Source: a candidate division WOR-3 bacterium
GTDB taxonomy: Bacteria; Hydrothermota; Hydrothermia; LBFQ01; DSFT01
Assembly (NCBI GenBank): GCA_965649115.1
Contig: CBFGJN010000030.1
Coordinates: 1 to 22,021 of the forward strand
Length of the DNA: 22,021 bases
Direction: 5' to 3'
The number at the start of each line of letters is the position of its first letter. The first letter of the stretch is position 1. This document shows, in pieces, positions 4,639 to 22,021 of the stretch. Both the position numbers and the translations under genes were made by a program. The notes beneath the pieces are model-generated. The model had not been told where the DNA came from and made no database searches. It was given only the letters and a program-made list of their open reading frames with translations.

Positions 4639-5205
4639 TTAAATCACCTTCCCCGAAAATTTAAGACTTAAACTAATAATTTTATTTTCTTTTGGAATAA
4701 CATTTAAATTACTATTTTCACTATAAGTTGTTGTAATTGATGTAATGTAGTCAAAACCTATACCAAAACCAATATAAAATTGTTTTGATATTGGAAAAAG
4801 CATATTCCCACCTATTCCAAAACCTAAATTACTTCCATTTGAGCTTCCATTATCTCCATTAAGTGTTAAACTAACAATTTGCGGAGAAAATAATGCTTGA
4901 AATATAAAGTTTTGAGAAGAATAAAGACCTATTAAGAATTTGATTTGTGTTATATTAAAATTTGTTGTATTTTCAAATGTAAAGCCATAGTAATCCCACT
5001 TTGTATTTAATGAACCAGAATTTAACTTAACCTCAAATCCTAAAAGTAAAGGACTTTCCCTAAAACCATACGTTCCAGAAAAACCAAAGCTTATAGGTGT
5101 TCCATTTGTTGTTGGTTTCGTTGAAAACACTGAACCTTTATAAGAAAAATCAATTTTTGATATACTATAAGATGAAATTCCAAAATCAAAACCCAAGAGA
5201 AACAT
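4639..5205 (-). CDS. Hypothetical protein, probable small outer-membrane beta-barrel
   Basis: 188 aa rich in G/F/S/Y with alternating amphipathic strands (LGFGIGGNMLFPISKQFYIGFGIGFDY). The fold is an inference. Confidence 0.55.
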   Translation of the reverse strand: MFLLGFDFGISSYSISKIDFSYKGSVFSTKPTTNGTPISFGFSGTYGFRESPLLLGFEVKLNSGSLNTKWDYYGFTFENTTNFNITQIKFLIGLYSSQNFIFQALFSPQIVSLTLNGDNGSSNGSNLGFGIGGNMLFPISKQFYIGFGIGFDYITSITTTYSENSNLNVIPKENKIISLSLKFSGKVI

Positions 5206-5212
5206 ATTGAAA

Positions 5213-5218
5213 ATTTTA
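5213..5218 (-). promoter_or_regulatory. -10-like TAAAAT, 7 nt upstream of the ATG at 5205
   Basis: Minus strand reads GCTTTAAAATTTTCAAT-ATG; the same motif precedes eight other starts. Confidence 0.6.
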
Positions 5219-5240
5219 AAGCTTAAATAGATATTTTTGG

Positions 5241-5407
5241 GCTTTGTCTAGTAATTCGGAAATATAGATTATTTCTTATTTTTTTCCCACCCACCCTATG
5301 AATAAGGCTTCGCCCCCCATTAGATCCCCCATAAAATCAATAGTTTTATTGAAATTTTCGTAAGTCATTGATAATCAAGCATTTAGCAATAATTACTGGA
5401 CAAAGCA
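5241..5407 (-). mobile_element. MITE-like element copy 1 (167 bp, internal deletion)
   Basis: TIRs GCTTTGTCTAGTAATT (5241-5256) and AATTACTGGACAAAGC (5391-5406), 15/16 complementary. Flanked by the direct repeat TATTTTTGG (5232-5240, 5408-5416). Confidence 0.85.
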
Positions 5408-5455
5408 TATTTTTGGAATTATTAGACAACACAAAACAGAGTAATAATTATCCCT

Positions 5456-5461
5456 TAAAAT
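5456..5461 (+). promoter_or_regulatory. -10-like TAAAAT, 9 nt upstream of the secG ATG
   Basis: CCTTAAAATTTTCAAACT-ATG. Confidence 0.6.
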
Positions 5462-5470
5462 TTTCAAACT

Positions 5471-5785
5471 ATGCTTTATGGGTTTTTGCTTTTTATTTTT
5501 ATTTTGCTTGTAATTTTTATGATATTGATTATTCTTATTCAAGAACCTAAAACAGCGGGGCTTGGAAGTTTTCTTGGAGGAACTGAAACAGTATTCGGAG
5601 CAAAAGGAACAGTTACCTTTTTCACAAAATTAACTGCTGGAATTGGTGCTATTTTTATGATTTTATCATTTATATTGGCTATGATAAACAGGCCTTCTAA
5701 TTATGGTTCAGCAATTGAGGAAGCTATAAAGAAAGGGAACATTATGAAACAATTACCTGTTCAACCACAACAACCTAAGAAATAA
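5471..5785 (+). CDS. secG: Preprotein translocase subunit SecG
   Basis: Two TM helices with ILIQEPKTAGLGSFLGG...VFGAKG...FFTKLTA signature. Confidence 0.93.
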   Translation: MLYGFLLFIFILLVIFMILIILIQEPKTAGLGSFLGGTETVFGAKGTVTFFTKLTAGIGAIFMILSFILAMINRPSNYGSAIEEAIKKGNIMKQLPVQPQQPKK

Positions 5786-5787
5786 AA

Positions 5788-7302
5788 TTGAAAAGTGCTT
5801 TAATTTCTGTTTGGACAAAAGAAGGTATAGAAAATTACGCAAAAGAATTAATAGATTTAGGTTATGAAATTATATCTACTAAGGGAACATGTGAATATTT
5901 AAAAAATTTCAATATAAATGCTAAATCAATTGACGAAATTACCAATTTTGAGCCTCTATTTGATGGAAGAGTTAAAACATTACATCCTATTATATTTGGA
6001 GGAATACTATATAAGAGAAACAACTTAAAACATCAACTTCAAGCAAAAGAAAAAAATATCCCAAATATAGAAATTGTAATTGTTGATTTATATCCATTCT
6101 CAATTGCTTCAAAAGATGTCATAGATGAAGAAGAATTGTTTGAATTCATAGATATTGGAGGAATATCACTTATTAGAGCAAGTGCTAAAAACTATAAAGA
6201 TGTTATAATAATTGTTGATTTAGATGATTTAGATTGGGTTATTGAGAAAATTAAGAAAAATTCCCTTACAATAGAAGACAGAAAAAAACTCGCATTGAAA
6301 GGTTTTTATAAAAGTGCCGATTATGATAGTTTTATATACAATGAACTTTTAAGAAGATGGCAGTTTAACATGTATGATTTAGATTTAATTTTTTCTTATA
6401 GGATTGGTTATCATTTGAGATACGGTGAAAACCCTCATCAAAAAGCAAGTTTATTATTTAACAATTACATAAAAGGATTTGCTCAAGCATTAGATTACAT
6501 TTGGGGAAAGGAACTTTCTTATAATAATTTACTTGATAGTTTTAGTGCATATAGTGTTGTAATGGAATTCAACGAAAAGGCTTGTGCTATTGTGAAACAT
6601 AATAATCCTTGTGGTGTTGCTATTGGCAGTAATGAAGTTGAAATTTATAAAAAAGCTTATGAAAGTGATCGTTTATCTGCTTATGGTGGAATTATAGCTT
6701 TTAATTTTGAAGTTAATGATGATTTAGCAAAATTATTAAATGAAAATTTCTATGAAGTTATTATAGCAAATGGTTATACACAAAAAGCATTGGATATTTT
6801 AAAAGAAAAGAAAAACAGAAGAATTCTAAAAATTAATAATTACAAAAAGCCAAATTTCTATATAAGAGATTTAGGAGGAGATTTACTAATATGTGAAGAA
6901 GATTATATTTTGTACAATGAACTTAATGTTGTAAGTGGAGATAATTTAACTGAAGACGAAAAAAAGCAAATTGAATTTGGTATTAAAGTAATAAAGCATA
7001 TTAAATCAAACGCTATTTTGTTATTAAAAAACTTTTCAACCGTAGGAATTGGAGCAGGACAGATGAGTAGAATTGATGCCTTAAAAGTAGCTATAATGAA
7101 AGCAGGTGAAAAAGCAAAAGGCAGTATTTTGATAAGTGATGCGTTCTTTCCATTCCCAGATAGTATAGAGCTTGCTTATGAAAATGGAATTTATTTAATT
7201 GTTGAACCTGGTGGCTCAATAAGGGATAATGAAGTTATAAATAAAGCAAAAGAATATAACATAAAGTTAGTTTTTACAGGAATTAGACATTTTAGACACT
7301 GA
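5788..7302 (+). CDS. purH: Bifunctional AICAR transformylase/IMP cyclohydrolase
   Basis: ALISV, GRVKTLHP, IDIGG, LRYGENPHQ, KHNNPCG, GAGQMSR, SDAFFPF, PGGSIRD, RHFRH. TTG start. Confidence 0.98.
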   Translation: MKSALISVWTKEGIENYAKELIDLGYEIISTKGTCEYLKNFNINAKSIDEITNFEPLFDGRVKTLHPIIFGGILYKRNNLKHQLQAKEKNIPNIEIVIVDLYPFSIASKDVIDEEELFEFIDIGGISLIRASAKNYKDVIIIVDLDDLDWVIEKIKKNSLTIEDRKKLALKGFYKSADYDSFIYNELLRRWQFNMYDLDLIFSYRIGYHLRYGENPHQKASLLFNNYIKGFAQALDYIWGKELSYNNLLDSFSAYSVVMEFNEKACAIVKHNNPCGVAIGSNEVEIYKKAYESDRLSAYGGIIAFNFEVNDDLAKLLNENFYEVIIANGYTQKALDILKEKKNRRILKINNYKKPNFYIRDLGGDLLICEEDYILYNELNVVSGDNLTEDEKKQIEFGIKVIKHIKSNAILLLKNFSTVGIGAGQMSRIDALKVAIMKAGEKAKGSILISDAFFPFPDSIELAYENGIYLIVEPGGSIRDNEVINKAKEYNIKLVFTGIRHFRH

Positions 7303-7307
7303 AAACT

Positions 7308-8852
7308 ATGATAATTCAAATTTTAGCGATTACGCCTTCGGAAGCTTTCAACAGGGCAAGCACACTTCTAAATGAAAACAAATTAGATTCTGTTAGTTAT
7401 TATTTAAGTATTGCTTATAAGGAATTTCCGAATGAGGTTGAAAATTTAATTTACTTGAAGTATTTAGAAGATCAAAAAACAGGTTTCAACTTAGCTTTGG
7501 AATTTGTAAAGTTAAATAAAAAATCTTGGAAAATTTCATCAATTGCTCTTCTTGGTGTTATTGAAGAAAAAAAATATAAAGAAATAGAAAAATTTTTGGA
7601 AATTTTTCCTGAAACTACAACGATTGGTAAAGTAATAAGTTTTTATAGTTTAGTCCAAAATAAAAAGTACTACGAAGCTATTAATGTGGGTGATAATTTA
7701 CTAAGCTCTTTTAGATATGCAATAACAATTCTTACAAATTATCCACAACTTCTAGATACAAGCCAACTATTTTATCTTCTTTTAAGAAAACTTTCCATTG
7801 ATTTTTTGGATTTTGCTTGTCAAAATTTTTATATGGAAAAATGTTTGAAATATATTTCAATAATTGAAAGCAAAGAAAAAGCTAAGGAAATTTATAATTA
7901 TGTTATTTTATATGGATTTTTTGGTTTAATTTCAAATGCTAAAAATTTTGATGAAGCTTATAATCAGCTACTAAAATTCGTAAAGTTTATAAAGGATAAC
8001 AATTGTAATGACTATGAAAAATTATTAACCATCTTTACTTCAATTCAATATACTTTTGAAAATGAGAGTTATTATGAATACGAAAAATTTTTATCTGCTG
8101 TTGATACGCTTGAAAATTATTGCCCTAATAAGTTTAACATTAAAATAAAATTATTAAGAGCTTATGGTTTGAGGGGATTGGACAAGAATAAAAAAGCTCT
8201 TGAAATTCTATTATCTTTAAAAGACAGCTTAAATGAACCCCAAAAACGATTTCTTATTGCTTCAGCTATTGATTACCTTGACTTTGAACTCGCTAAAAAA
8301 TTAACAAATGAATTTAACATAAATGATTCCTCAATTTTAAGAATTATTGACCCTTCAAAGAATTGTGAATTGCTTTATAACCAAAGGAAATTAAAAGAAA
8401 TTTTAAAAGTTTGCGATGAAGATACACCTGAAAGGGCTTATGTCTATTTCTTATTATCAAAAAAAGATTCAGCAAATCAAATTATAAATAATTTAATCAA
8501 AAATCTTGAATTTTCAAATAAAAATTACACTTACTATTGGAATAAAGGTTGGTTTAAATTACTAATTGGGGATATTGATAGTAGCTATTATTTAACATTA
8601 AAAGCACTTGAAATGAAACCAAACAATTCTTTCTTAATTATGAACCTTGGAAGCATTCATTTAGCAAAACTTAAAGTAGATTCTGCAATTTATTATTATA
8701 AAAAGGCATATAAAGTTAATAGTGAATATGGAAACTATAAAGAAAGTTCATTTTTCCAAGTTCTAAAAAATGATATTGAACTTATTAGTAAAATTTACAA
8801 CTTAAAAGTAAATTCAAAAGAAATTTTGGAAAAAATTAAGAAAAAGGCTTAA
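7308..8852 (+). CDS. Tetratricopeptide-repeat-containing hypothetical protein
   Basis: Helical composition with C-terminal TPR-like repeats (YWNKGWFKLLIGDIDSSYYLTLKALEMKPNN; MNLGSIHLAKLKVDSAIYYYKKA). Confidence 0.7.
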   Translation: MIIQILAITPSEAFNRASTLLNENKLDSVSYYLSIAYKEFPNEVENLIYLKYLEDQKTGFNLALEFVKLNKKSWKISSIALLGVIEEKKYKEIEKFLEIFPETTTIGKVISFYSLVQNKKYYEAINVGDNLLSSFRYAITILTNYPQLLDTSQLFYLLLRKLSIDFLDFACQNFYMEKCLKYISIIESKEKAKEIYNYVILYGFFGLISNAKNFDEAYNQLLKFVKFIKDNNCNDYEKLLTIFTSIQYTFENESYYEYEKFLSAVDTLENYCPNKFNIKIKLLRAYGLRGLDKNKKALEILLSLKDSLNEPQKRFLIASAIDYLDFELAKKLTNEFNINDSSILRIIDPSKNCELLYNQRKLKEILKVCDEDTPERAYVYFLLSKKDSANQIINNLIKNLEFSNKNYTYYWNKGWFKLLIGDIDSSYYLTLKALEMKPNNSFLIMNLGSIHLAKLKVDSAIYYYKKAYKVNSEYGNYKESSFFQVLKNDIELISKIYNLKVNSKEILEKIKKKA

Positions 8853-8878
8853 TTATAGGGTGGGAAAAATACACCTCC
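8844..8878 (+). repeat. Degenerate remnant of the MITE-like element
   Basis: AAGGCTTAATTATAGGGTGGGAAAAATA resembles AAGGCTTGATTTTAGGGTGTGTGGG (21846-21870) and the equivalent part of copy 3. Confidence 0.55.
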
Positions 8879-8899
8879 ATAAATGGTTAACTTATGCTT

Positions 8900-8905
8900 T
8901 AAAAT
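8900..8905 (+). promoter_or_regulatory. -10-like TAAAAT, 9 nt upstream of the dnaK ATG
   Basis: TGCTTTAAAATTTTCAGGCT-ATG. Confidence 0.6.
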
Positions 8906-8914
8906 TTTCAGGCT

Positions 8915-10780
8915 ATGGCAGAGAAAATTTTGGGTATTGACCTTGGAACAACGAACTCAGTTGTTTCTATAATGCAAGGTGATGAAACCATTGTTATTCA
9001 TAACTTAGAAGGTGAAAGATTAACACCATCTGTTGTTGCTTTTAAAGGAAATGGTGAAGTTATTGTAGGTTCTCCTGCTAAAAGACAGGCTATACTTAAT
9101 CCCGAAAATACAATTTACTCAATAAAAAGATTTATGGGGAGAAGATATGATGAGGCATTAGATGATATAAGAAGGGTTCCCTATAAGGTTGTTAGAGGAA
9201 GGAATGACAGAGTTGAAGTTTTTATTCCTGCTGAAAATAAAAATTACACACCAGAGCAAATATCAGCAGAGATTTTAAGATATTTGAAAAAGAGTGCTGA
9301 AACTTATCTTGGAGAGCCTGTTAGGAAAGCTGTTATAACAGTTCCTGCTTACTTTAATGATGCTCAAAGACAAGCAACAAAAGATGCCGGAACAATAGCA
9401 GGTCTTGAAGTTGTTAGAGTTCTTCCTGAACCAACAGCTTCTGCATTAGCTTATGGTCTAAATAAAACTGATAAAAAATTAAAAGTAGCAGTTTATGACT
9501 TAGGTGGTGGGACATTTGATATATCTATCCTTGAATTAAGTGGAGGAGTATTTGAAGTAATAGCTACTCATGGAGATACTCACTTAGGTGGAGATGATAT
9601 TGACAATAGAATTATTGAATGGCTTATTGAAGAATTTAGAAAAGAAACGGGCATAGATTTATCAGCTGATAGACAAGCTTTACAAAGGTTAAAAGAGGCA
9701 GCAGAAAGAGCCAAAAAAGAATTATCCTTCCAAAATGAAACAGTAATTAGTCTTCCATTTATAACTGTTGATAGTTCAGGTCCAAAACATCTTGAAAGAA
9801 CATTAACAAGAGCAAGACTTGAAGCAATGGCTATGGATTTAATAGATAGAAGTATTAAACTAATTAAGGAAGCTCTTGAAGAAGCCAAATTGAGACCATC
9901 AGATATTGATGAAATAATTCTTGTGGGAGGACAAACAAGAATGCCGTTAGTTCAAAGGAAAGTTCAGGAATTCTTCGGTAAAGAACCTCACAAGGGAATA
10001 AATCCCGATGAAGTAGTAGCAATTGGTGCAGCAATTCAAGCAGCGATTATATCTGGTGAGTATAGAGCAAAAGATATTGTTTTATTAGATGTAACACCAT
10101 TATCATTGGGTGTTGAGGTTCTTGGAGGTTTATTTGACGTAGTAATACCTAAGAATACAACTATACCAACAAGGAAAACGAAAATATATACAACAGCTGA
10201 GGATAATCAAACAAGTGTTTGGATTAAAGTTTATCAAGGAGAAAGAAAGATAGCAAGAGAAAATAGATTACTTGGAGAATTTGAGCTTTCAGGTATTCCA
10301 CCTGCACCAAGAGGAGTGCCTCAAATAGAAGTTACATTTGATATTGATGTAAATGGTATATTAACTGTTAGTGCTGTTGAAAAAGCAACTGGTAAAAAAG
10401 CTGATATTAAAATTCATGCAAGAACTGGATTAACAGAAGAAGAAATACAAAGAATGATAAAGGAAGCACAAGAGAAGGAAGAAGAAGATAGAAGGAGAGC
10501 AGAACTCATTGAACTTAAAAATCAAGTAGATGCCTATATTTATTCAGTTGAAAAATCATTAAAAGAATTTTCTTCACAAATAAGTGATGACGAAAAGAGA
10601 AGTGTAGAAGAAAAGATAAATAAAGCAAAAGAAAGTCTAAAAACTGACAATAAAGAAGAAATTCAAAAAGCCTATGAAGAACTTCAAAATGTTTGGAATA
10701 GTATAACTACAAGAATTTACCAAAGCTATAAGAGTGAAAGACCTGACGATAAAAAAGATGATTTTAGGGTAGAAAACTAA
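8915..10780 (+). CDS. dnaK: Chaperone DnaK (Hsp70)
   Basis: [70 protein letters not shown]. Confidence 0.99.
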
Positions 10781-11272
10781 ATGTTATTTTTTCTTTTTAA
10801 TCAATTAGAAAAAGAAATTCAAAAAAAGTATTTGTCTATAAACTACTTGAAGGCAAGTTTCATTCAGATTATTAAATATCCTTCAAGAAGTGATTCTGTT
10901 TTATTTAGTGGCTACTTAGTTTATAAATCACCAAGCGAATTAACTTTTAATATAAATGAAACCAAAAGTAAAATTATATTAAGAGATACGATTATAATGA
11001 CAGTTCAAAACAATGATACATCAATCCAAATTTTACCAAAAAATTATATGTTCAATCCATATTACTTCTTAACCGAAGGTATAAAAGCATATAAAAGTGA
11101 ATTAAAAAAATTCAATGATAAAATTGAAATTAATCTATTATCTGATACTTTATTTTACAAAGATATTAAATTTGTTTTAAACTCAAAGGATTATAGTATT
11201 TTAAGCGTCAAAGCAACTGACATGTACGGTGTTATATATGAATTAAAGCTGAAAGATATTGAACAAAAATGA
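10781..11272 (+). CDS. LolA-like outer-membrane lipoprotein carrier
   Basis: YLSINYLKASFIQ...FSGYLVYKSP...NP pattern resembles the LolA N-terminal strands (ASFxQ, G-x-L-x-x-K-x-P). Divergent sequence. Confidence 0.6.
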   Translation: MLFFLFNQLEKEIQKKYLSINYLKASFIQIIKYPSRSDSVLFSGYLVYKSPSELTFNINETKSKIILRDTIIMTVQNNDTSIQILPKNYMFNPYYFLTEGIKAYKSELKKFNDKIEINLLSDTLFYKDIKFVLNSKDYSILSVKATDMYGVIYELKLKDIEQK

Positions 11273-11679
11273 AAGCTATAAATTATGCTTTGAGGTTATT
11301 GAAATTTCGTTCTCGTTCTGAAAATGAATTGAGAAAAAGAATGAAACAAAAAGGATTTGAAGATATTGAAATTGATAGTGTAATTGAAAAGCTTAAAAAA
11401 TATGGTTATATAAATGAAATTGAAGATGCCATAAATTATGTTAAAATTAAATGTGAAAAGGGATGGTCAAAAAAGAAAATTTATTTTGGACTTTTAAGAA
11501 GAGGTTATAATAAAGAAATTATAAAACAAGCATTAATTAATTACCAAAAGGATTTAGTAATTCAAAAACTAAAAAATGAAATTTCAAGAAAGAATTTAAA
11601 TAAAGAGAAATTAATAAAACTTCTTAAAAGTAGAGGTTTTGAATGGGATATCATAAAAGAAGTTTTGAGAAATGATTGA
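11269..11679 (+). CDS. recX: Regulatory protein RecX
   Basis: ALRLLKFRSRSENELRKRM, LKKYGYIN, LLRRG, LKSRGF three-helix repeats. Confidence 0.9.
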   Translation: MKAINYALRLLKFRSRSENELRKRMKQKGFEDIEIDSVIEKLKKYGYINEIEDAINYVKIKCEKGWSKKKIYFGLLRRGYNKEIIKQALINYQKDLVIQKLKNEISRKNLNKEKLIKLLKSRGFEWDIIKEVLRND

Positions 11680-12340
11680 ATTAATAAATGTAAGGAAAGT
11701 TTATAAGGATCCAAATGAAATTGTTGTTTTTGAAAATTTAAATTTAAAAATATCTGAAAGTAAAATAATAGCCATAACTGGACCTTCTGGAAGTGGCAAA
11801 ACAACACTTTTGAATTTAATAGGAATGATTGATTTTCCCGATGAAGGAGAAGTTTTAATAAATTCAAAAAATATCAAAAATTTAAGTGAAAACGAAATAT
11901 CAAAATTAAGAAATGAATTTATTGGATTTGTATTTCAAAGCTCTCATTTAATAAATGAGCTAACAGTTTTGGAAAATGTTTTAATTCCAAGTTTAATAAA
12001 AAACAAATTTTTAAATAATGATAGCCTAAGAAGAGCAATTGAAATTCTTGATTATTTTCAAATATCAAATAAGAAAGATAATTTACCATATGAAATATCA
12101 GGTGGTGAAAAAAAGAGAGTTGAGATAGCAAGAGCAATTATGAATAACCCTAAAATTATCATAGCAGATGAACCTACTGCAAATTTAGACCAAAAGCTTA
12201 AATTTTCAATTATGGAAATTCTTTATAAAGTTAGAAATGATTTTGGAACTACTATTATATTTTCAACGCATGATTATGAAATACTTAAATATGCTGATAA
12301 AGTATATAAAATTGAAAATATGAATTTAGTAGAAATATGA
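11672..12340 (+). CDS. ABC transporter ATP-binding protein, LolD/MacB-like
   Basis: Walker A GPSGSGKTT, LRNEFIGFVFQ, signature ISGGEKKR, ADEPTANLD, H-loop STHD. Confidence 0.9.
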   Translation: MIELINVRKVYKDPNEIVVFENLNLKISESKIIAITGPSGSGKTTLLNLIGMIDFPDEGEVLINSKNIKNLSENEISKLRNEFIGFVFQSSHLINELTVLENVLIPSLIKNKFLNNDSLRRAIEILDYFQISNKKDNLPYEISGGEKKRVEIARAIMNNPKIIIADEPTANLDQKLKFSIMEILYKVRNDFGTTIIFSTHDYEILKYADKVYKIENMNLVEI

Positions 12341-13416
12341 AAATTGGAATACTTGGAGGAGGACAGCTCGGATTTATGACAATTTTGAGAGGAACATATA
12401 TGGGTTTTGAATTCAATGTCCTAGATAAAAGCTTTGATGTTTCTTCAAGAAAAACATCAGCAAAGTTATTTAAATTTGAAAATTATTCTGAATTTTATAA
12501 TGAAAGCGATATTATAACATTTGAATTTGAACATATTCCAATAGATATTGCTGAATTTATGAAGGAAAAGTTAAGACCTTCGCTTGAAATTTTACTATTA
12601 AAACAAAATAGATTTAATGAAAAGCAATTTTTGTTAGATAATAAGTTTCCCGTTCCAAAATTTTTTAAGGCAGAAAATGGAAGAGAAGCTTTTGAAATAA
12701 TAAAGAAAAATAATTTTATTCCATGTGTTGTTAAAACAACAAGACTTGGTTATGATGGCAAAGGTCAGTTTTATATAAGAAGTTTTGAGAATTTAGAAGA
12801 AATTTATAACTTAAATGAAGAATTAATAATAGAGGAATATATTGATTTTGAAATGGAGGTTTCTACAATTGTTGCAAGAAATGAATTAGATATTAAAGTT
12901 TATCCAATTTCCCAAAATTTTCATAAGGATGGAATTTTAATTTACAATATAACACCTGCTAAAATACCTAAAAAACTTGAAAATAAAATATATGAAATTG
13001 CTATTGAACTTTCAAAATCATTAAATTTAATAGGAATTGTTGCTATTGAATTCTTTGTTAAAGATGAAGATATTCTAATAAATGAAATTGCTCCGAGACC
13101 TCATAATAGTGGCCATTGGACACTTGATGGTTCAATTACTTCCCAATTTGAGCAATTTTTAAGAGCAATTTTAAATCTACCTCTTGGAGAAACAACATTA
13201 ATTAAACCTACATTAATGATAAATTTGCTTGGTGTCGATAAACCAAATTTAAATGAAATTTTTAAAATTAAAAATAGTTATTTTTATTGGTATTTTAAAG
13301 AGAAAAAAACGAGAAGAAAAATGGGACATATTAACATTCTTTTAGATGAATATGATGATTACAAGGATATTGTTAAATTAATTCTTGACTTGTCTAATAA
13401 ATATAGTGTTAAGTAA
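12337..13416 (+). CDS. purK: N5-carboxyaminoimidazole ribonucleotide synthase
   Basis: GILGGGQLG, TFEFEH, GYDGKGQ, NEIAPRPHNSGHWT, SQFEQ, RKMGH. Confidence 0.97.
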   Translation: MKIGILGGGQLGFMTILRGTYMGFEFNVLDKSFDVSSRKTSAKLFKFENYSEFYNESDIITFEFEHIPIDIAEFMKEKLRPSLEILLLKQNRFNEKQFLLDNKFPVPKFFKAENGREAFEIIKKNNFIPCVVKTTRLGYDGKGQFYIRSFENLEEIYNLNEELIIEEYIDFEMEVSTIVARNELDIKVYPISQNFHKDGILIYNITPAKIPKKLENKIYEIAIELSKSLNLIGIVAIEFFVKDEDILINEIAPRPHNSGHWTLDGSITSQFEQFLRAILNLPLGETTLIKPTLMINLLGVDKPNLNEIFKIKNSYFYWYFKEKKTRRKMGHINILLDEYDDYKDIVKLILDLSNKYSVK

Positions 13417-13434
13417 TTTTAACCCTCTCTGCTG

Positions 13435-13614
13435 AGCTTTGTCCAGTAATTATTGTTAAGCGATTGATAATCAATAATTTATAAAATTTTTAAGGAAATT
13501 GTTGATTTATTGGGGGGATTATTAGGGGGGCTCTGCCCCCCAAAGCAAAAAATGGGTATTTTAAAGCCAAAAGCTTTTGAAAAATAAATAATTCCAGAAT
13601 TTTTGGACACAGCA
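13435..13614 (+). mobile_element. MITE-like element copy 2 (180 bp, lacks the GGGTGGGTGGG block)
   Basis: Ends AGCTTTGTCCAGTAATT and AATTTTTGGACACAGCA. Perfect 9-bp flanking direct repeat TCTCTGCTG (13426-13434, 13615-13623). Confidence 0.9.
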
Positions 13615-13636
13615 TCTCTGCTGATTTTATATTCTT

Positions 13637-13642
13637 TAAAAT
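13637..13642 (+). promoter_or_regulatory. -10-like TAAAAT, 8 nt upstream of an in-frame TTG at 13651
   Basis: TCTTTAAAATTTTCAAAT-TTG. Confidence 0.55.
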
Positions 13643-13650
13643 TTTCAAAT

Positions 13651-15573
13651 TTGACATTATTATTATTTGCTTTTGATATTATTAAACCATATGATAACAT
13701 CTATAAAATAGACCTTTCAGGTGACAATCAAATTGTTTTCACAAATGAAAGTGTTAAACCACTAAGAGTTCAAATTCTTGAGAATAATGAACCTCTAAAA
13801 AATTATGAAATTAACATTTTCCTTATAACACCAAATAATGTTGAAAAATATAAAGTTAAAACAGACAGTCTTGGTTATGCGATATTTATTCCACCAAAAC
13901 CAAAATTTGAAGGTTTATATAGAGTTATATTTTATAGAGAAGAACATTTTTCTTATTTTACTTTTAATGCAATAGATAGACTTTATATTCTATTTTCAAT
14001 ACTTGAAATGATTGGTGGATTTATTATTTTCCTATATGGAATGGAAAAATTAAATAGAGGAATAAATGCTTTTGCAGGCGCTACAATTAAAGGTTTTCTA
14101 AAAAAATTTTCAGAAAATAGAATTTTCTCATTCTTAATAGGTATTATTTCAACAATTGCTATACAATCATCAACAGCTATTAATGTTATGCTTGTATCAT
14201 TTGTAGATTCAGGATTATTATCTTTGAAAAGTGCTTTAAGTATTGCATTAGGAGCGGGAATAGGCTCAACATTTACAACACAATTAATATCATTTGGAAT
14301 ATTTGAAATTTCACCACTTATTATAACAATTGGCTATATATTAAAAAGAATGGAAGGAAGAATTAGAGCTTATGGAAACGCTATATTTGGAATAGGTTTA
14401 TTATTTTTTTCAATAAAAATGATGTCAAGTAGTGCTTACTCACTAAATATATTTCCTCAATTTAAAAGCTTCTTTGAAAGTGTAAATAGTAATCCTTTAT
14501 TTGGTATCTTAGTATCAATAATTTTTACTTCATTAGTTCATTCAAGTGCTGCAGTTGTAGGATTTGCAATATCACTTGGTTTTCAAAATATTATTGATTT
14601 AAAAGGTGGAATTTACATCATACTTGGAGCAAACATAGGAACAAGTATAACAGCGATTTTAGCATCTTTAAAAACAGGGGCAAGTGGTAAGCAAATTGCA
14701 TTTGCAAATTTCATATATAAATTCATAACATTTTTAATTATTTTTATTTTTATAAATGATTTTATAGAAATTGTGGAAAAAACTGATAGCTCACTTACAA
14801 GGCAAATAGCTAATGCTCATACTTTATTTAATATAATTGGAGCAATTATTTTTCTACCATTTGTAAATGTTGCTCAATTTATTTTTAAGAAATTATTTAA
14901 GGAAAAAATTGAGACAAGAATTTTACCCGACCCATCTATTTTTGATAATAGCTCAATTGCTATTGTTGTTGCTCATAGAAAAATTATAGAAATGTCAAAT
15001 ATCATTGAAAATATGCTTGATAAAATTCCAGAAATTTTGATTACAAAAAATACTTCTTTAATAAATAAAGTTGAATTAATGGATGAGGAGGTTGATAGAA
15101 TTAGAGATGAAATCGTCTTATATTTAATAAAACTTCAAAAAATTGAAATGACCGAAGAAGAAAGCAAAAAAGTTAAAATAATTTCAAGCATTATTGATGA
15201 ATTTGAAGCGATAGGTGATGTTATCACAAAAAACATTACAAAAAATGTTTATAAGCTTTATAATGAAGGAATTAATTTTTCAAAGGAAGGACTTGAAGAT
15301 TTACTTGAATTTCATAAGGAAATAATGATTAGTTTTCAAATTATGAATATCGCTCTACTTGATTTTGATAAAGTGAAGGCAAAGGAAGGTTTTGAAAGAA
15401 GATTTTATGTAAATAATTTACTTGATAAGTTTCATCAAAAACATTTTGAAAGATTAAAAGCACTAATTCAGGAAACATTTTTAACCAGTTCTATACATGT
15501 TGAACTTTTGAATAACTTTGAAAGAATAAACTATCATATTAGTGAAATCTGTAAAGAGATTATGAGTGAATAA
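13651..15573 (+). CDS. Na/Pi cotransporter family protein (NptA/YjbB-like) with C-terminal PhoU domain and N-terminal Ig-like extension
   Basis: QSSTA and HSSAA repeats, GAGIGST/GANIGTS, IANAHTLFN, helical PhoU-like C-terminus. I moved the start from the track's 13603 (inside element copy 2) to the in-frame TTG at 13651 that follows the recurring -10 motif. Confidence 0.88.
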   Translation: MTLLLFAFDIIKPYDNIYKIDLSGDNQIVFTNESVKPLRVQILENNEPLKNYEINIFLITPNNVEKYKVKTDSLGYAIFIPPKPKFEGLYRVIFYREEHFSYFTFNAIDRLYILFSILEMIGGFIIFLYGMEKLNRGINAFAGATIKGFLKKFSENRIFSFLIGIISTIAIQSSTAINVMLVSFVDSGLLSLKSALSIALGAGIGSTFTTQLISFGIFEISPLIITIGYILKRMEGRIRAYGNAIFGIGLLFFSIKMMSSSAYSLNIFPQFKSFFESVNSNPLFGILVSIIFTSLVHSSAAVVGFAISLGFQNIIDLKGGIYIILGANIGTSITAILASLKTGASGKQIAFANFIYKFITFLIIFIFINDFIEIVEKTDSSLTRQIANAHTLFNIIGAIIFLPFVNVAQFIFKKLFKEKIETRILPDPSIFDNSSIAIVVAHRKIIEMSNIIENMLDKIPEILITKNTSLINKVELMDEEVDRIRDEIVLYLIKLQKIEMTEEESKKVKIISSIIDEFEAIGDVITKNITKNVYKLYNEGINFSKEGLEDLLEFHKEIMISFQIMNIALLDFDKVKAKEGFERRFYVNNLLDKFHQKHFERLKALIQETFLTSSIHVELLNNFERINYHISEICKEIMSE

Positions 15574-15585
15574 GTCATTATTATC

Positions 15586-15924
15586 TGCCCCACTATAATC
15601 CCCCATTAAATAATAGGTTATTGATAACCAATAACTTATTGCTTTGTCTAGTAAATAATGTTAGGTTATTGGTTATCAATAACTTATAAAGATTTTATTG
15701 GAATTATTTATTAAAGGGGGGTTTTAATGGGGGGCTTTGCCCCCCCATAGCCGAAATATGGGTACTTTAAAGGCGAAGCCTTGAATATAGGGTGGGTGGG
15801 AAAATAAAATACAGAAAAATAAATAATTTTAGAATTGCTGGACACAGCAATAACTTATAAATTGGGTTTTTTAAAGCAGTAGGCCTATATTTAGGGTGGG
15901 TAAGAAAAGAGAGAAAAATAAAAA
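15586..15924. repeat. Older degenerate element remnants flanking copy 3
   Basis: The left flank has C-tracts and the 25-bp palindrome (15614-15638). The right flank has TGGGTTTTTTAAAG...TAGGGTGGGTAAGAAAA...AAAAATAAA, matching the element interior. Confidence 0.65.
15640..15849 (+). mobile_element. MITE-like element copy 3 (210 bp, most complete)
   Basis: Ends TGCTTTGTCTAGTAAAT and AATTGCTGGACACAGCA. 9-bp direct repeat ATAACTTAT (15631-15639, 15850-15858). Contains all internal modules. Confidence 0.9.
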
Positions 15925-16329
15925 CTATTTTCTCATTTCATCAATAATATCTTTTAATGTCATTTTTGAAAGAAAATTTTCAATTTTTTCATTCATCTTT
16001 TTCCAAAAACCTTTCATTAAGCACATTGAAATAAAACTACAACTATTATCGCTTTCAATACATTTAACAATTCCAAATTTTCCTTCAAGTAATTCAATAA
16101 TTTCAATAATTTTTATATCTTCTGGCTTTTTCTTTAAATAATAACCTCCTTTTGGACCTCTTTTTCCTTCAACAATTCCAGCGTTTTTAAATTCAGCCAT
16201 TATTCTTTCAAGAAATGATTCGGGTATCAATTCAATATAAGATAATTCCTTAGTAGTTAAAGAACCATTCAAATGTAATCTTAAAAGTGCTCTTATTCCA
16301 TATTCAACTTTATTAGTTAATTTTAGCAT
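15925..16329 (-). CDS. Rrf2 family transcriptional regulator (three-Cys, Fe-S-binding type)
   Basis: LTNKVEYGIRAL, IPESFLERI, GKRGPKGGYYL, C-x6-C-x5-C cluster. Confidence 0.93.
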   Translation of the reverse strand: MLKLTNKVEYGIRALLRLHLNGSLTTKELSYIELIPESFLERIMAEFKNAGIVEGKRGPKGGYYLKKKPEDIKIIEIIELLEGKFGIVKCIESDNSCSFISMCLMKGFWKKMNEKIENFLSKMTLKDIIDEMRK

Positions 16330-16338
16330 TTATTTAAA

Positions 16339-16344
16339 ATTTTA
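16339..16344 (-). promoter_or_regulatory. -10-like TAAAAT, 9 nt upstream of the Rrf2 ATG
   Basis: Minus strand TGCTTTAAAATTTTAAATAA-ATG. Confidence 0.6.
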
Positions 16345-16367
16345 AAGCATAAGGTATTTTATTTTTC

Positions 16368-16573
16368 TATTGTGTCTAGTAATTTTGAAAATATATTCAT
16401 TTCTATATTTTTTTCGCACCCAACCTAATAATAAGCCTTCTGATTATAAATACCTCATCTTTTGCCTTTGATGGCTTTACCACCATTAAATCCCCTATAA
16501 AATCAATAGTTTCGTTAAAAATGTTGTAAGTTATTGATTATCAAAGGCTTAAAATTAATTATTGTACAAAGCA
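16368..16573 (-). mobile_element. MITE-like element copy 4 (206 bp, full length but diverged)
   Basis: Ends TATTGTGTCTAGTAATT and AATTATTGTACAAAGCA, colinear with the reverse complement of copy 3. Palindrome at 16527-16551. No clear TSD. Confidence 0.8.
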
Positions 16574-16685
16574 TTCTTTGATGGCGTATCCAATATTAAG
16601 CTTTCAACTTTAAAATTTCCATATTTCCTTAACAAAGCACCTTGTTAGAAACAGAAAAATAAGCCCCCCTACTGAAAAAATGCTT

Positions 16686-16691
16686 TAAAAT
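16686..16691 (+). promoter_or_regulatory. -10-like TAAAAT, 9 nt upstream of the rpoZ ATG
   Basis: TGCTTTAAAATTTTACTCCT-ATG. Confidence 0.6.
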
Positions 16692-16700
16692 TTTACTCCT

Positions 16701-16901
16701 ATGGATAAGAACTTTAAATTTCTTGCAAAAAAATTTGAGTGGAAAAAGATAGATGATAAGTACGAGGCGGTTATTGTTGCTGCCAAATATGCAAGGTTCT
16801 TATTTGAAAAGTCAAAAGAACAAAACTTTAAATTACCTTCAAAACCGATATTTATAGCGATGGATGCTTATCTAAACAAAAAGATAGAATATAAAAAGTG
16901 A
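16701..16901 (+). CDS. rpoZ: RNA polymerase omega subunit
   Basis: KYEAVIVAAKYAR...KPIFIAM matches the omega pattern; it lies directly upstream of coaBC as in the conserved rpoZ-coaBC order. Confidence 0.8.
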   Translation: MDKNFKFLAKKFEWKKIDDKYEAVIVAAKYARFLFEKSKEQNFKLPSKPIFIAMDAYLNKKIEYKK

Positions 16902-18019
16902 AAATTATTCTTGGTATTACGGGAAGTGTCGCTTGTTATAAAGGAATTCTGATTTCAAGAGAAATTTTCAAAAGAGGTCTAAATCAAAAAGTTATTTTAA
17001 CGAATTCTGCATTAAAATTTATAAGACCCTTAATTTTCAAAGCAATATCAAATGCAGAAGTTTATACACAAAAGGATTTTTTTAATTCAAATCTTCATAT
17101 TGAAATATCAAGATGGGGTGATTTACTTTTAGTAGCACCTGCCAGTGCCAACTTTATATCAAAACTCGCTAATGGTATAGCTGATAATTTATTACTTTCA
17201 GTTGCTATTTCATTTAACAAAAGGATTATATTAGCACCTGCTATGCATGATGAAATGTGGAAAAATAAATTTTTGAAAGAAAATGTAGAAAAGTTAATAA
17301 AAAGTGGAATTGAAATTATTGGACCTGTTTATGGAGAATTATCTGGTGGAGATTTTGGAGAAGGAAGAATGCTTGAAGTAAATGAAATAATAGATTATAT
17401 ATTTAAAAGAACAAAAAAAGTTTTGCTTGTATATGGAAGGACAGAAGAACCAATAGACGATGTTAGAGTAATTACAAATCGTTCAAGTGGAAAAATAGGT
17501 TATTTTATCCATAAGGCACTTGAAAGTAAAGGAATTTATCATGATATTATTGTTTGTGGTTCAATTGAGAATGTGCCAGAAAAGAAATTTATAAGAGTTT
17601 ATAGAACACAAGAGCTTTTAAATGTTTTAAAAGAAATTATTAAAAATTATGATGTTCTAATAATACCCGCTGCAATCTCTGATTTCGTAAGTGATAGTAT
17701 AAAGGGGAAAATTCATAGAAAAAATGGAAATTTAAATTTAAATTTAAAACCAAATATTGATGTTTTAAGAGAAATTTCAAGTTTAAAGGAAAATAGAATG
17801 TACATTGGATTTGCTCTTGAAGAAGAAAACGAAATTGAAGAGAATGCAAAAAATAAAATTATTGAGAAAAATTTAGACTTTATCGTAGCAAATACCTTAG
17901 ATAGTATTTCATCTGAAAATATGACAGGTTTTATAATGGATAAGAATTTCAAAAAAGTTTTTGAATTTAAAAATTTAGATAAATTTGAAGTTGCCAAAAA
18001 AATTGTAAGTTTAATATGA
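16898..18019 (+). CDS. coaBC: Bifunctional phosphopantothenoylcysteine decarboxylase/synthase
   Basis: GITGSVACYK, HIEI, APASAN, GIADNLL, PAM, TEEPIDDVRVITNRSSGK, AAISDF, GFALE. GTG start. Confidence 0.95.
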   Translation: MKIILGITGSVACYKGILISREIFKRGLNQKVILTNSALKFIRPLIFKAISNAEVYTQKDFFNSNLHIEISRWGDLLLVAPASANFISKLANGIADNLLLSVAISFNKRIILAPAMHDEMWKNKFLKENVEKLIKSGIEIIGPVYGELSGGDFGEGRMLEVNEIIDYIFKRTKKVLLVYGRTEEPIDDVRVITNRSSGKIGYFIHKALESKGIYHDIIVCGSIENVPEKKFIRVYRTQELLNVLKEIIKNYDVLIIPAAISDFVSDSIKGKIHRKNGNLNLNLKPNIDVLREISSLKENRMYIGFALEEENEIEENAKNKIIEKNLDFIVANTLDSISSENMTGFIMDKNFKKVFEFKNLDKFEVAKKIVSLI

Positions 18020-18651
18020 AACTTCCAAAAGGTTCATTAAAATGGAAAATAACATATATATTGGCTTATCCAATTGCTAAATTTATTATTGGAGTTAAAA
18101 TTTACGGAAGAGAAAATATCCCTGAAAATGGTCCTTTAATTTTAGCCCCAAATCACAGAAGCTATATTGACCCGCCTGTTGTTGGTTTTGCAAGTCCAAG
18201 AGAAACATATTTCTTAGCAAAAGAAGAATTATTTAAGTTTAAGCCATTTGCTATGTTAATATCTTTTTATAATGCAATTCCTTTAAAGAGAAGCGTTGAA
18301 TCAAAAACTGCTTTAATTTATGCTATTGAAAAATTAAAAGAAAACAAAGTCATAACAATTTTTCCAGAAGGCACAAGAAATAAAACAAAACAAAAATTAT
18401 TACCATTTAAGCTTGGCGTGGCATTTTTATCATTAAATACAAATGCAAAAATTGTTCCAATATATATAAAAAACAATGATGGTAGAGCATTTTTAAAACC
18501 TTTCTTATGGATTTTAAGAATTAAAAGACTTGAAGTTCATATAGGCAAACCCATAGAGCCTAATGAATTTACAAATGATAGAAAAGGGCAAGTTGAACTA
18601 ACAAAAAAACTATATGAAGAAATGTTAAAACTTATAGAAAATGCTAAATAA
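18016..18651 (+). CDS. plsC: 1-acyl-sn-glycerol-3-phosphate acyltransferase
   Basis: NHRSYID (HX4D), FLAKEELF, IFPEGTR, IVPI motifs. Confidence 0.93.
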   Translation: MKLPKGSLKWKITYILAYPIAKFIIGVKIYGRENIPENGPLILAPNHRSYIDPPVVGFASPRETYFLAKEELFKFKPFAMLISFYNAIPLKRSVESKTALIYAIEKLKENKVITIFPEGTRNKTKQKLLPFKLGVAFLSLNTNAKIVPIYIKNNDGRAFLKPFLWILRIKRLEVHIGKPIEPNEFTNDRKGQVELTKKLYEEMLKLIENAK

Positions 18652-19504
18652 ATTAAATTTTAAAATTGGACATTATAAAAATTGTACAGTTATACTATGC
18701 CCTAATAGGACAATTGGAAGTTATTATTGTCCTGGCTATGCCCCTTCTAGTAGAGAATTAGAACTACTTAAACCTGATAAAACTGTAAATGTTGTTAATG
18801 CTATATTATTAACAGGTTGTTCAGCATTTGGACTTATAAGAGCAGAAGGGGTTGTTAAATTTCTTAAAGAAAATAATATAGGATATAAAACACCCTTTTC
18901 TATTGTTCCTATTGTTCCATCTGCCGTTATATATGACCTTGGAGTTTTAGAGATTATTCCTGAAATTGATGATGGATATAAAGCTTGTTTAAATGCTAAT
19001 TTTGATGTAAAAATTGGAAAAATTGGTGCTGGTCTTGGTGCTACTGTTGGAAAGTGGGCAGGATTTGAATATAAAGATGATGGAGGATTGGGTTTTTATT
19101 GTTATGAATATAAAAATTTAATTGTATGTGCATTAAGTGTTGTAAATAGTGTTGGAGATATTATAGATAAAGATGGAAAAATTTTAAGAGGTGCTAAAAA
19201 AGATAATAACTTTTTAGCAGAAAATTTAAAATTTAGATTTTTAAGCATTAGTGAAAACATAAATACTACAATTGTTTGTATTCTCACAAATGCAAAAATT
19301 GATAAACTTGGTTGCTATAAGCTTTCAAAACGTTCAGTTATCGGAATATCAAGAGCAATTGAACCATCTTTTACTTCTTATGATGGAGATATTATTTTCA
19401 CATTAACAACTAATGAAGTTGAATGCTCTTTTGAAGAATTATGTGAAATCACGAATTTTGTTGTTTCTGAGAGTATTCGTTCAATAGCTCAAAAAATGTT
19501 TTAA
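18641..19504 (+). CDS. Peptidase family S58 / P1 (DmpA-like)
   Basis: APSSRELELL, AILLTGCSAFGL, VPIVPSAVIYDL, GAGLGATVGK, VVNSVGD, NTTI, YDGDIIF. Confidence 0.88.
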   Translation: MLNKLNFKIGHYKNCTVILCPNRTIGSYYCPGYAPSSRELELLKPDKTVNVVNAILLTGCSAFGLIRAEGVVKFLKENNIGYKTPFSIVPIVPSAVIYDLGVLEIIPEIDDGYKACLNANFDVKIGKIGAGLGATVGKWAGFEYKDDGGLGFYCYEYKNLIVCALSVVNSVGDIIDKDGKILRGAKKDNNFLAENLKFRFLSISENINTTIVCILTNAKIDKLGCYKLSKRSVIGISRAIEPSFTSYDGDIIFTLTTNEVECSFEELCEITNFVVSESIRSIAQKMF

Positions 19505-19811
19505 CTGCTCTTCTTACATGCGGTATTGTAATTGAACCACCTACAATTAAGGCAATATCAATAATTTCAAAAAACTCATCTTTTGTTATACCATTTTCCA
19601 AACACTTAATAATGTGATAGGTTATACAATCATCACATCTAAGAACAATTGAAGCAACAAGACCCATCATTTCTTTATATTTTTTAGGAATTTTACCATC
19701 ATTATAAACATCATGATCAAGAGCAAAAAATCTCTTTGTTGATAATGTCCCTTCTTTTAATATAATTTCATTCATCTTTTCTCTAAAAGCTTTAAAGTCA
19801 TTTACATTCAT
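19449..19811 (-). CDS. Carboxymuconolactone decarboxylase / AhpD family protein
   Basis: KYKEMMGLVASIVLRCDDCITYH (E-x9-CxxC-x3-H-type AhpD core), VGGSITIPH. Confidence 0.9.
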   Translation of the reverse strand: MNVNDFKAFREKMNEIILKEGTLSTKRFFALDHDVYNDGKIPKKYKEMMGLVASIVLRCDDCITYHIIKCLENGITKDEFFEIIDIALIVGGSITIPHVRRAVKTFFELLNEYSQKQQNS

Positions 19812-19818
19812 AGCGAAA

Positions 19819-19824
19819 ATTATA
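19819..19824 (-). promoter_or_regulatory. Consensus -10 TATAAT, 7 nt upstream of the CMD-gene ATG
   Basis: Minus strand ACTTTATAATTTTCGCT-ATG. Confidence 0.65.
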
Positions 19825-19839
19825 AAGTCTATAATTTGA

Positions 19840-20205
19840 TGGTGTGTCTAGTAATTCTGAAAGTATTTATTTTTCTTATTTTGGCCACCCATCTTATATT
19901 CAAGGTTTTGCCTTAAAAACTTCGCTCCCTTAAAAACCTCCGTTGGACAAAGCAAAAAATTTTAGTGTGTCTAATAATTTTAGAACCATTTATTTTTCTA
20001 TTTTTCCCGTCCACCCTGAAATTAAGCTTTATTCAGTAATTCTGGGAACATATATTTTTCTATATATAGTTTCAGAAAATTTTTCATAAGTTATTGATAA
20101 TCAATTACTTGACAACAATTATTGGACAAAGCAAGTTTTATTTAGTGTTTATAAAAATTCTGAAAGTATTTATTTTATTATATTTCTTCCATACACCCTA
20201 TTAAA
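19840..20205 (-). mobile_element. Tandem cluster of four same-orientation element derivatives: 19840-19954, 19963-~20024, 20025-20133, 20143-~20205
   Basis: Four starts resembling TGCTGTGTCTAGTAATTCTGAAA and two GGACAAAGCA ends (19954, 20133). AATTCTGAAAGTATTTATTTT is identical at 19853 and 20156. Palindrome at 20087-20111. Confidence 0.8.
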
Positions 20206-20246
20206 ACAACGTAAAGATTAGCTTGTCCTTTCTTTAATAAAATAAA

Positions 20247-21669: not shown

Positions 21670-22021
21670 TGGGGACAAAGCTCCCGACAAAAAATAGGGT
21701 ATTTTAAAGGCGAAGCATTGAAGATAGGGTGGGTGGGAGAATATAAAAAACAAATAATTTCAGAATTATTAGACAAAGCACTTATCAATTTAATTTATAG
21801 GGGGGCGTTAGCACCCCTACCGAAAAATGGGGATTTTATAAGCCGAAGGCTTGATTTTAGGGTGTGTGGGTAAATAAGGAAAAAATAAATAATTTTAGAA
21901 TTACTAGACACAGCACTGATTAGATGCTTTGTCTAGTAATTATTGTTAAGTCTTTGATTATCAATAACTTATAAAAATTTTAAGAAAATTATTAATTTTG
22001 GTGGGGGTTTTAAGGGGGGCG
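21670..22021 (+). mobile_element. Tandem cluster of three element copies: right halves ~21670-21780 and ~21797-21915, and a new copy from 21925 that runs off the window
   Basis: Right ends AATTATTAGACAAAGCA (21780) and AATTACTAGACACAGCA (21915). Left end TGCTTTGTCTAGTAATT at 21925. Palindrome at 21947-21971. Confidence 0.85.

Follow-up and report, generated by a model that had tools for sequence, protein, structure and literature searches.

Our analysis concerns a 22,021-nt stretch of DNA, the entire contig CBFGJN010000030.1 (contig C30, here called the window), from a candidate division WOR-3 bacterium (Hydrothermota), an uncultured hot-spring thermophile whose assembly (GCA_965649115.1) holds 1,848,020 bases in 99 contigs with 27.6% G+C. 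The window and the rest of the genome carry a short repeat, a true MITE (miniature inverted-repeat transposable element), whose right end stands in one orientation at a nearly fixed distance upstream of host promoters. We consider it probable that insertion is anchored to the promoter, in that the MITE derives by internal deletion from an insertion sequence of the IS5 family (IS903-like) whose transposase picks its target by the host promoter. This view builds on the observed geometry and orientation of the insertions, their target duplications, the repeated use of single sites, the independence of the promoter motif from the element, and the family of the transposase.

In the proposed mechanism, an IS5-family (IS903-like) insertion sequence with many identical copies in the genome would mobilize the internally deleted MITE, and its transposase would choose the target by reference to the host promoter, usually 6 to 11 nt from the start codon. 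Integration would proceed into a 9-bp target ending either 10 nt (major register) or 2 nt (minor register) upstream of the C of the promoter motif, and the right end would always be left adjoining the promoter. The distance between target and promoter would be unchanged after insertion, and the next copies would enter the same 9 bp; because the target would keep its distance from the promoter each time, head-to-tail stacks with 9-nt spacers would build up.

Structure of the repeat and its target duplications

Alignment of the window copies gave a repeat of 170 to 210 nt with the termini TGCT...AGCA and terminal inverted repeats matching TGCT(T/G)TGTC(T/C)A(G/A)TAATT. It comprises a left arm with TTGATAATCAA, a central G6/C6 hairpin, and a right arm with AGGGTGGGTGGG followed by an A/T-rich stretch. 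Genome-wide, paired ends fall into size classes that peak at 160 to 180 and 200 to 220 nt. A pattern scan of the genome found 1,186 end-like sites, which were assigned from their inner sequence to 463 right (R), 321 left (L), 399 unclassified, and 3 ambiguous ends. With the element bounded as TGCT...AGCA, a 9-bp direct repeat is perfect at 94 of 208 complete L-to-R copies and agrees in at least 8 of 9 positions at 111 of them, versus 0 in shuffled pairings. Because of these flanking repeats the element is a true MITE with 9-bp target duplications, and it has the usual traits of one: it is short and non-coding, has terminal inverted repeats and a target duplication, and is present in many copies. 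Its end word was also present in records of “Candidatus Hydrothermia” bacteria in an exact-word scan.

The host promoter motif

The exact word TTTAAAATTTT occurs 705 times in the genome, and in 328 cases the start of an open reading frame (ORF) of at least 60 codons lies within 25 nt downstream, most often (276/328) 3 to 8 nt past it. The same motif is found about 10 nt ahead of tRNA genes and also ahead of some leadered genes with a GGAGG site; because these genes carry it too, it is a -10-type transcription signal, serving mostly leaderless messages, and is no ribosome site. Upstream of 336 unoccupied promoters, we found no information beyond position -5 relative to the C of the motif and no -35 conservation. 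The host promoter is thus predicted to be a -35-less extended -10 element, CTTTAAAATTTT, and the MITE does not replace a conserved -35, since the unoccupied promoters show none. Right-oriented ends lie within 70 nt upstream of 186 of the 522 ORF starts that follow a motif (36%).

Most genes begin 6 to 11 nt after a near-invariant CTTTAAAATTTT, with neither a -35 nor a Shine-Dalgarno sequence (in the window, 5453-5473, 8898-8917, and 13634-13653), and leaderless messages seem to be the rule in this host. In a minority of genes, the CTTTAAAATTTT box is followed by a leader with GGAGG. Words from the dnaK stretch were present at no more than 6% in four metatranscriptome runs, which were available as contigs only, with transcript starts not readable.

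Distance and orientation of element ends

Offsets were counted from the terminal G/C of the element to the C of CTTT in the motif, with the flank read outward from each end; CTTTAAAATTTT was accepted with at most one mismatch unless two are stated. A full 80-nt flank could be read at 456 R ends; the motif stands at offset 20 in 121 of them, 19 in 47, 21 in 4, and 18 in 2. This major peak is only 2 nt wide and has no tail at larger distances. A second peak covers offsets 10 to 14 (1, 6, 28, 10, and 7 ends, respectively, with the maximum of 28 at offset 12), and a few R ends directly abut the motif. L ends with a full flank (n = 315) gave 25 motif matches, spread flatly over 6 to 67 nt. All ends were distributed as follows.

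R ends (n = 463), motif near: offset 18 to 21, 174 (+12 at two mismatches); offset 10 to 14, 52 (+5)
R ends (n = 463), other: copy abutting at 9 nt, 114; other copy near, 10; contig end, 7; motif elsewhere, 4; none, 85
L ends (n = 321), motif near: offset 18 to 21, 4 (+1); offset 10 to 14, 3 (+1)
L ends (n = 321), other: copy abutting at 9 nt, 131; other copy near, 9; contig end, 6; motif elsewhere, 5; none, 161

When ends inside stacks and at contig ends are excluded, 243 of the 332 remaining (“free”) R ends have the motif at either offset (186 at 18 to 21 and 57 at 10 to 14), as do 9 of 175 free L ends. By chance, 1.8 and 2.3 of the 332 free R ends would be expected at these two offsets given the intergenic motif density; from the genome-wide density, the expectation at 18 to 21 is 0.7 for the 456 full-flank R ends. 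The geometry recurs in another genome of the same genus (G002), of which 355,505 bases, about a fifth, were sampled: the motif lies at 19 to 21 in 15 and at 10 to 12 in 10 of 37 R ends, and none of 29 L ends falls in either peak.

In the window, the ends at 5241, 5432, 13613, and 16369 belong to the major class and the end at 19841 belongs to the minor class. The features are as follows.

5241..5407, minus strand: MITE copy, right end 5241 facing the beta-barrel gene (4639-5205, minus strand); alignment and end scan, offset 19
5231-5240 and 5407-5416: duplication TATTTTTGG(+1) of MITE 5241..5407; copy/flank alignment
5210..5221, minus strand: beta-barrel gene promoter motif CTTTAAAATTTT, TAAAAT at 5218-5213, start codon a few bases on; sequence
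5417..5433, plus strand: solo decayed right-end remnant facing secG; end scan (end 5432, offset 20) and sequence
5453..5464, plus strand: secG promoter motif CCTTAAAATTTT, TAAAAT at 5456-5461; conserved in element-free same-genus genomes
13436..13614, plus strand: MITE copy between purK and the Na/Pi gene, right end facing the Na/Pi gene; offset 20
13426-13435 and 13615-13624: duplication TCTCTGCTG(A) of MITE 13436..13614; copy/flank alignment
13634..13645, plus strand: Na/Pi gene promoter motif, TAAAAT at 13637-13642; sequence and end scan
15640..15849, plus strand: full-length MITE nested within an older broken copy, flanked by the 9-bp duplication ATAACTTAT; no adjoining promoter
16369..16573, minus strand: decayed MITE, right end toward the Rrf2 gene (15925-16329, minus strand); alignment, offset 21
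16336..16347, minus strand: Rrf2 gene promoter motif, TAAAAT at 16344-16339; sequence and end scan
19841..20240, minus strand: between the CMD gene and gatB, three or more decayed copies in a block, right end 19841 toward the CMD gene; offset 13
19816..19827, minus strand: CMD gene promoter motif CTTTATAATTTT; sequence and end scan
21690..22021, plus strand: contig-end copies, right ends 21779/21780 and 21914/21915
21916-21924, plus strand: 9-nt spacer, then the next left end from 21925, running off the contig; end scan

The initial annotation, made from the window alone, had described a near-constant gap between right ends and TAAAAT boxes. Five of its six positive gaps hold against the sequence and the end scan: the gap is 22 nt at the beta-barrel gene (right end 5241, TAAAAT 5218-5213, minus strand; offset 19), secG (decayed end 5433, TAAAAT 5456; offset 20), and the Na/Pi gene (right end 13614, TAAAAT 13637; offset 20) and 23 nt at the Rrf2 gene (right end 16368/16369, TAAAAT 16344; offset 21). 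We likewise recovered the end at 19841, which has the same orientation and a shorter gap to the CMD gene (offset 13), and, as it had stated, no right end faces proS, rpoZ, or gatB. The remnant that it had placed before the dnaK box (~8868-8890) proved to be an internal GGGTGGG piece with no element end, and the end scan found no terminal repeat in 6850-13387. Its suggestion of promoter-targeted, oriented insertion is borne out by the genome-wide histogram of distance and orientation, which shows a spike and is not flat, and by the orientation bias among free ends (243 R versus 9 L).

The minor register has a feature of its own: TG precedes the motif at 20 of 35 sites with offset 12 versus 27 of 147 with offset 20. 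The element itself also begins with TGCTTT, and the spacing in this register (9 nt, then TGCTTT) is the same as that within stacks. Because this spacing is repeated, a second anchoring on an end-like word is possible. A deletion with its endpoints in the TGCTTT of a copy's left end and the TGCTTT of the promoter might also have produced this register, but direct insertion is the better fit at one empty orthologous site (promoter G000:C15:4181).

Stacks and empty orthologous sites

Within the 9-bp target, the genome copies show no sequence preference. The duplication separates the right end from the promoter motif; the spacer between the two is not conserved. Of 162 pairs of facing termini within 60 nt of each other, 132 have a spacing of exactly 9 nt, counted between terminal bases; these junctions are left-to-right (head-to-tail) in 104 cases, left-left in 2, and right-right in 1, and the remainder involve an unclassified end. 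In 33 stacks at major-register promoters, the 9-mers around the proximal copy agree in 6.82 of 9 positions on average versus 5.82 of 9 around the distal copy, and agreement is perfect in 16 versus 11 stacks; the proximal copy is better in 15 stacks, worse in 5, and equal in 13. Because the proximal 9-mers agree better, these figures fit an entry of new copies next to the promoter. Recombinational exchange of left flanks between copies would yield the same difference. In three stacks, the outer 9-mers are equal and the inner one is different, as if the pair had moved as a unit.

Orthologous sites were read from printed sequences. The 355-kb G002 sample contains orthologous gene starts for 34 of the promoters that carry a copy in the window's genome; of these, 14 are clearly empty in G002, about 15 also have an end (several at another offset), and the rest are ambiguous or unusable. 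At secG, the same CTTTAAAATTTTCAAACTATG occurs in two same-genus genomes without an upstream element, and a third same-genus genome has an element at a different distance. At the CMD gene, no copy occupies the G002 site, where gatB extends directly into the promoter; the window carries a 430-nt block of copies there. This is the only site in the window at which comparison of filled and empty states with a same-genus genome recovered both junctions, as the upstream neighbors mostly differ. Because a duplication intervenes, the spacer varies, and empty orthologous promoters keep the motif, the promoter motif is independent of the element.

G002 gatB terminates inside the CMD promoter motif, and the block in the window has altered the last few codons of gatB and its stop (19816-20250). 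Upstream of the copies at most occupied promoters, there is no synteny with the same-genus genome (13 of 15 sites have no upstream match within 2.5 kb), which suggests rearrangement at MITE copies.

The probable driver, an IS5-family transposase

One identical sequence, beginning TGCCTTGTCCAATAATT (right type), is shared by sixteen contig ends, each of which breaks off about 120 nt into it. A second identical sequence, beginning TGCTTTGTCCAATAAAT (left type), was found at eight contig ends in one count and at ten places in another. Such identical copies, at which the assembly breaks, suggest that a long element has been active recently. Of the 16 right-type ends, 11 have the motif at offset 19 to 20 (one with two mismatches), another 3 lie 9 nt from a copy, and the remaining 2 show neither feature; 0 of 10 left-type ends adjoin a promoter. 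The two ends are nearly identical to each other (15 of the first 17 bases). The MITE and the long contig-end copies begin alike, with TGCTTTGTCCAATAAAT and TGCCTTGTCCAATAATT, and the left one enters a transposase reading frame.

One left-type copy (G000:C93) extends 110 nt further and shows a host-type promoter followed immediately by ATG and 56 codons. The 56-amino-acid (aa) N terminus matches NCBIfam model NF033579 (IS5 family) with an E value of 3e-5, below the cut-off, as a fragment. A 300-aa protein in a large protein collection, 92% identical to this peptide, contains PF01609 and PF13737, scores 245.5 bits over the whole NF033579 model (cut-off, 140), and aligns with IS903B transposases at ~26.6% identity over 96% of its length. 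IS903B from a public plasmid (locus L086) is 1,057 bp long, and its inverted repeat agrees with the left end of the long copy in 14 of 18 positions. Because this left end encodes a matching transposase N terminus, the putative driver is an IS5-family, IS903-like transposase.

A complete copy was sought in several ways. Between pairs of ends 0.6 to 4 kb apart in the window's genome, we found no transposase; housekeeping genes, a restriction-modification pair, and membrane proteins lie there instead. None of the multi-copy reading frames of the genome looks transposase-like by eye, and tblastn and family searches of the genome gave N-terminal fragments only. Searches with PF01609 and NF033581 had no match in five same-genus genomes, and a class-wide NF033579 search yielded nothing beyond fragments and elements that lack these ends. 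Exact-word scans of metagenome and genome collections found no match to the interior of the long copy, and a collection search with the 300-aa protein found no relative. The only full NF033581 match in the class, a protein of genome G054, was rejected as a partner, as its ends are unrelated and it is IS5/ISAba23-like; tblastn of this protein against the window's genome gave no match.

Several related elements were seen in passing. A 1,533-bp element in G002 (locus L035; C87, positions 1501-3033) has the same inverted ends, a 9-bp duplication, and the promoter motif at offset 20, and its only gene, of 492 codons, is TnpB-like (NF040570, E value of 3.5e-16); this is an RNA-guided-nuclease gene carried by a DDE-type element. 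In the window's genome, a DNA methyltransferase gene and a possible restriction enzyme gene lie between R-type and L-type ends 1,780 nt apart (G000:C51:6378-8157), which may form a composite unit. In a genome from another genus of the same order (G013), a related long element beginning TGCTTTGTCCAAAAAG stands at contig ends (L066, L069, L072, and L078) and leads into an IS5-like N terminus with the same W..YN..L..RG word. About 40 to 50 nt inside its left end, the MITE retains the motif-like TTATAAAATTTTTAAGG (for example, 13478-13495 in the window), which matches the transposase-gene promoter of the long copies. This left-arm motif matches the host motif inward in 52 and outward in 93 of 220 copies, and because it does so in both directions, MITE copies may have promoter activity of their own.

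Alternative explanations

Several points weigh against promoter-anchored insertion by an IS903-like transposase. (i) The interior of the long copy is missing from the assembly, and the right-type (16) and left-type (10) ends may therefore belong to different elements. (ii) The 1,533-bp G002 element, which has a TnpB-like gene and no transposase, has an end 82% similar to the right-type end. (iii) No motif is near 85 of the 463 R ends, many of which lie inside other copies. (iv) A single anchor does not explain the minor register and its link to TG. (v) Selection must shape the survivors too, all copies seen being fixed or old.

As to how the promoter is read, we lean, with slightly less than even confidence, toward a transpososome that directly reads the motif DNA or a bent A4T4 structure. 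Two features favor direct reading: on a bound promoter, sigma region 4 would occupy the target position, and the motif is long and nearly invariant. The same geometry would arise if the transposase were instead tethered to promoter-bound RNA polymerase holoenzyme, through sigma or alpha, which we regard as doubtful, if credible. Such a tether to the initiation complex was proposed for TnGBS by analogy with Ty3 (PMC3942029, cited throughout from a portion of its text), and it would suit a 9-bp target without sequence preference and the targeting of mRNA and tRNA promoters alike. However, the major target would lie at about -34 to -26 (if the C of the motif is at -15), the position of sigma region 4 on a bound promoter, whereas TnGBS inserts 15 to 17 bp upstream of the -35, outside that footprint (PMC3942029). 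Moreover, the 85 R ends lacking the strict motif show no excess of weaker TAnAAT boxes at the right distance.

Two further proposals go beyond targeting. The broader one, which we consider rather unlikely, is that homing to the -35 position of promoters that lack a -35 arose independently in an IS5-family transposase; with MITEs flanking about a third of leaderless promoters, promoter architecture and transposon would be co-adapted, and the copies would act as UP-like or insulating modules and as rearrangement breakpoints. The narrower one, for which we see still less probability, is that copies are retained, besides being targeted, because their A/T-rich right arm supplies the gene that it faces with a promoter module upstream, either an UP-like element or an insulator. 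The host promoters have no -35 of their own, the 186 of 522 leaderless-type promoters described above carry a copy, and the A/T-rich arm would fall at about -47 to -70; however, in the major register 27 nt separate the -35-like TAGACA/TGGACA of the right end from the -10 box, too far for a -35.

Random insertion with selection for the closest harmless position is very unlikely. Every copy seen has survived selection, and intragenic copies would be lost, but selection of this kind would hardly yield a peak 2 nt wide with no tail to larger distances, an orientation bias of 243 to 9, or repeated use of one 9-bp site, and the same offset recurs in 11 of 16 long copies, whose identity marks them as recent. 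The initial annotation had offered the closest tolerated position as an explanation; this is improbable, as 57 right ends, including that at the CMD gene, lie 8 nt closer than the 19 to 20 nt of the major register and a few abut the motif.

Descent from the Mutator superfamily (ISLre2/TnGBS/ISKra4) has even less to recommend it. The oriented, promoter-anchored behavior is the same, and the parallel with TnGBS/ISLre2 drawn in the initial annotation is apt in this respect, but the element itself is not Mutator-like: its long copies start with an IS5-family N terminus, and their ends resemble those of IS903B. PF06782 and NF033572 had no match in the window's genome and four same-genus genomes (0/5), a weak negative given that the PF06782 control was silent in 14 of 14 control genomes. 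Lastly, a mobile promoter, with the motif belonging to the element and the constant distance internal to the repeat, can be dismissed almost entirely: the left end of the insertion sequence and many MITEs do carry a motif-like TTTAAAATTTT about 40 to 50 nt inside the left end, but a 9-bp duplication separates the right end from the promoter motif, the 19-nt spacer is unconserved, and empty orthologous sites that retain the motif refute it.

Comparison with known systems

Promoter-anchored insertion allows a transposon to multiply without gene disruption and is known in bacteria only for Mutator-like transposases. If our reading is true, a second, unrelated DDE family does the same at a different position, and the trait evolves convergently. 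It would also put on offer a small (300-aa) enzyme with a dissectable target rule. The copies naturally map several hundred promoters of an uncultured phylum and show that mobile-element occupation of a third of the promoters can be tolerated in a 1.85-Mb genome.

The closest parallels are the TnGBS integrative and conjugative elements, ISLre2, and part of ISKra4, which insert in one orientation 15 to 17 bp upstream of the -35 of housekeeping promoters, with the right inverted repeat beside the promoter, and avoid genes (PMC3942029). The likeness is one of behavior and not of descent, as those elements have Mutator-like transposases and the present one has an unrelated IS5/IS903-like enzyme. 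The position differs as well: here the element end is 19 nt upstream of the extended -10 motif and 22 nt from the -10 hexamer, that is, at the -35 position of a -35-less promoter. The second register of the MITE, 8 nt closer, is a further difference from these elements, as is the multiplication of MITE derivatives to several hundred copies. In addition, orientation is ascribed in the same study to unlike ends (PMC3942029), whereas here it is strict although the ends of the long copy are nearly alike (15/17).

With IS903 and IS903B, the element shares 9-bp target repeats (for IS903B, PMC9769513, of which a part was available), inverted repeats (14/18), a transposase alignable over 96% of its length, and the same Pfam domains. 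The differences are a protein identity of only ~26.6% and a host that is an uncultured thermophile. Our literature search found no account of promoter-anchored targeting for IS903, and a full-text search of a limited literature collection found none of such insertion by any IS5-family element or MITE. Like other bacterial MITEs, the present one is short and non-coding, has terminal inverted repeats and target duplications, and is mostly intergenic, clustered, and nested (PMC10969869); the part of this 2024 review cited here gives intergenic or 3'-end preferences and names no MITE with a fixed promoter distance and orientation. ISAjo2-type elements (IS1202 family, dif/pdif sites) are likewise found with a single orientation, a small and fixed distance away from a site bound by a protein, but their anchor, according to the accessible portion of PMC10132070, is a XerC binding site and not a promoter, and the family differs. 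Thus, the type of behavior was already known, and our findings support as new a second transposase family, a different position relative to the promoter, and the amplification of a MITE to a third of the promoters.

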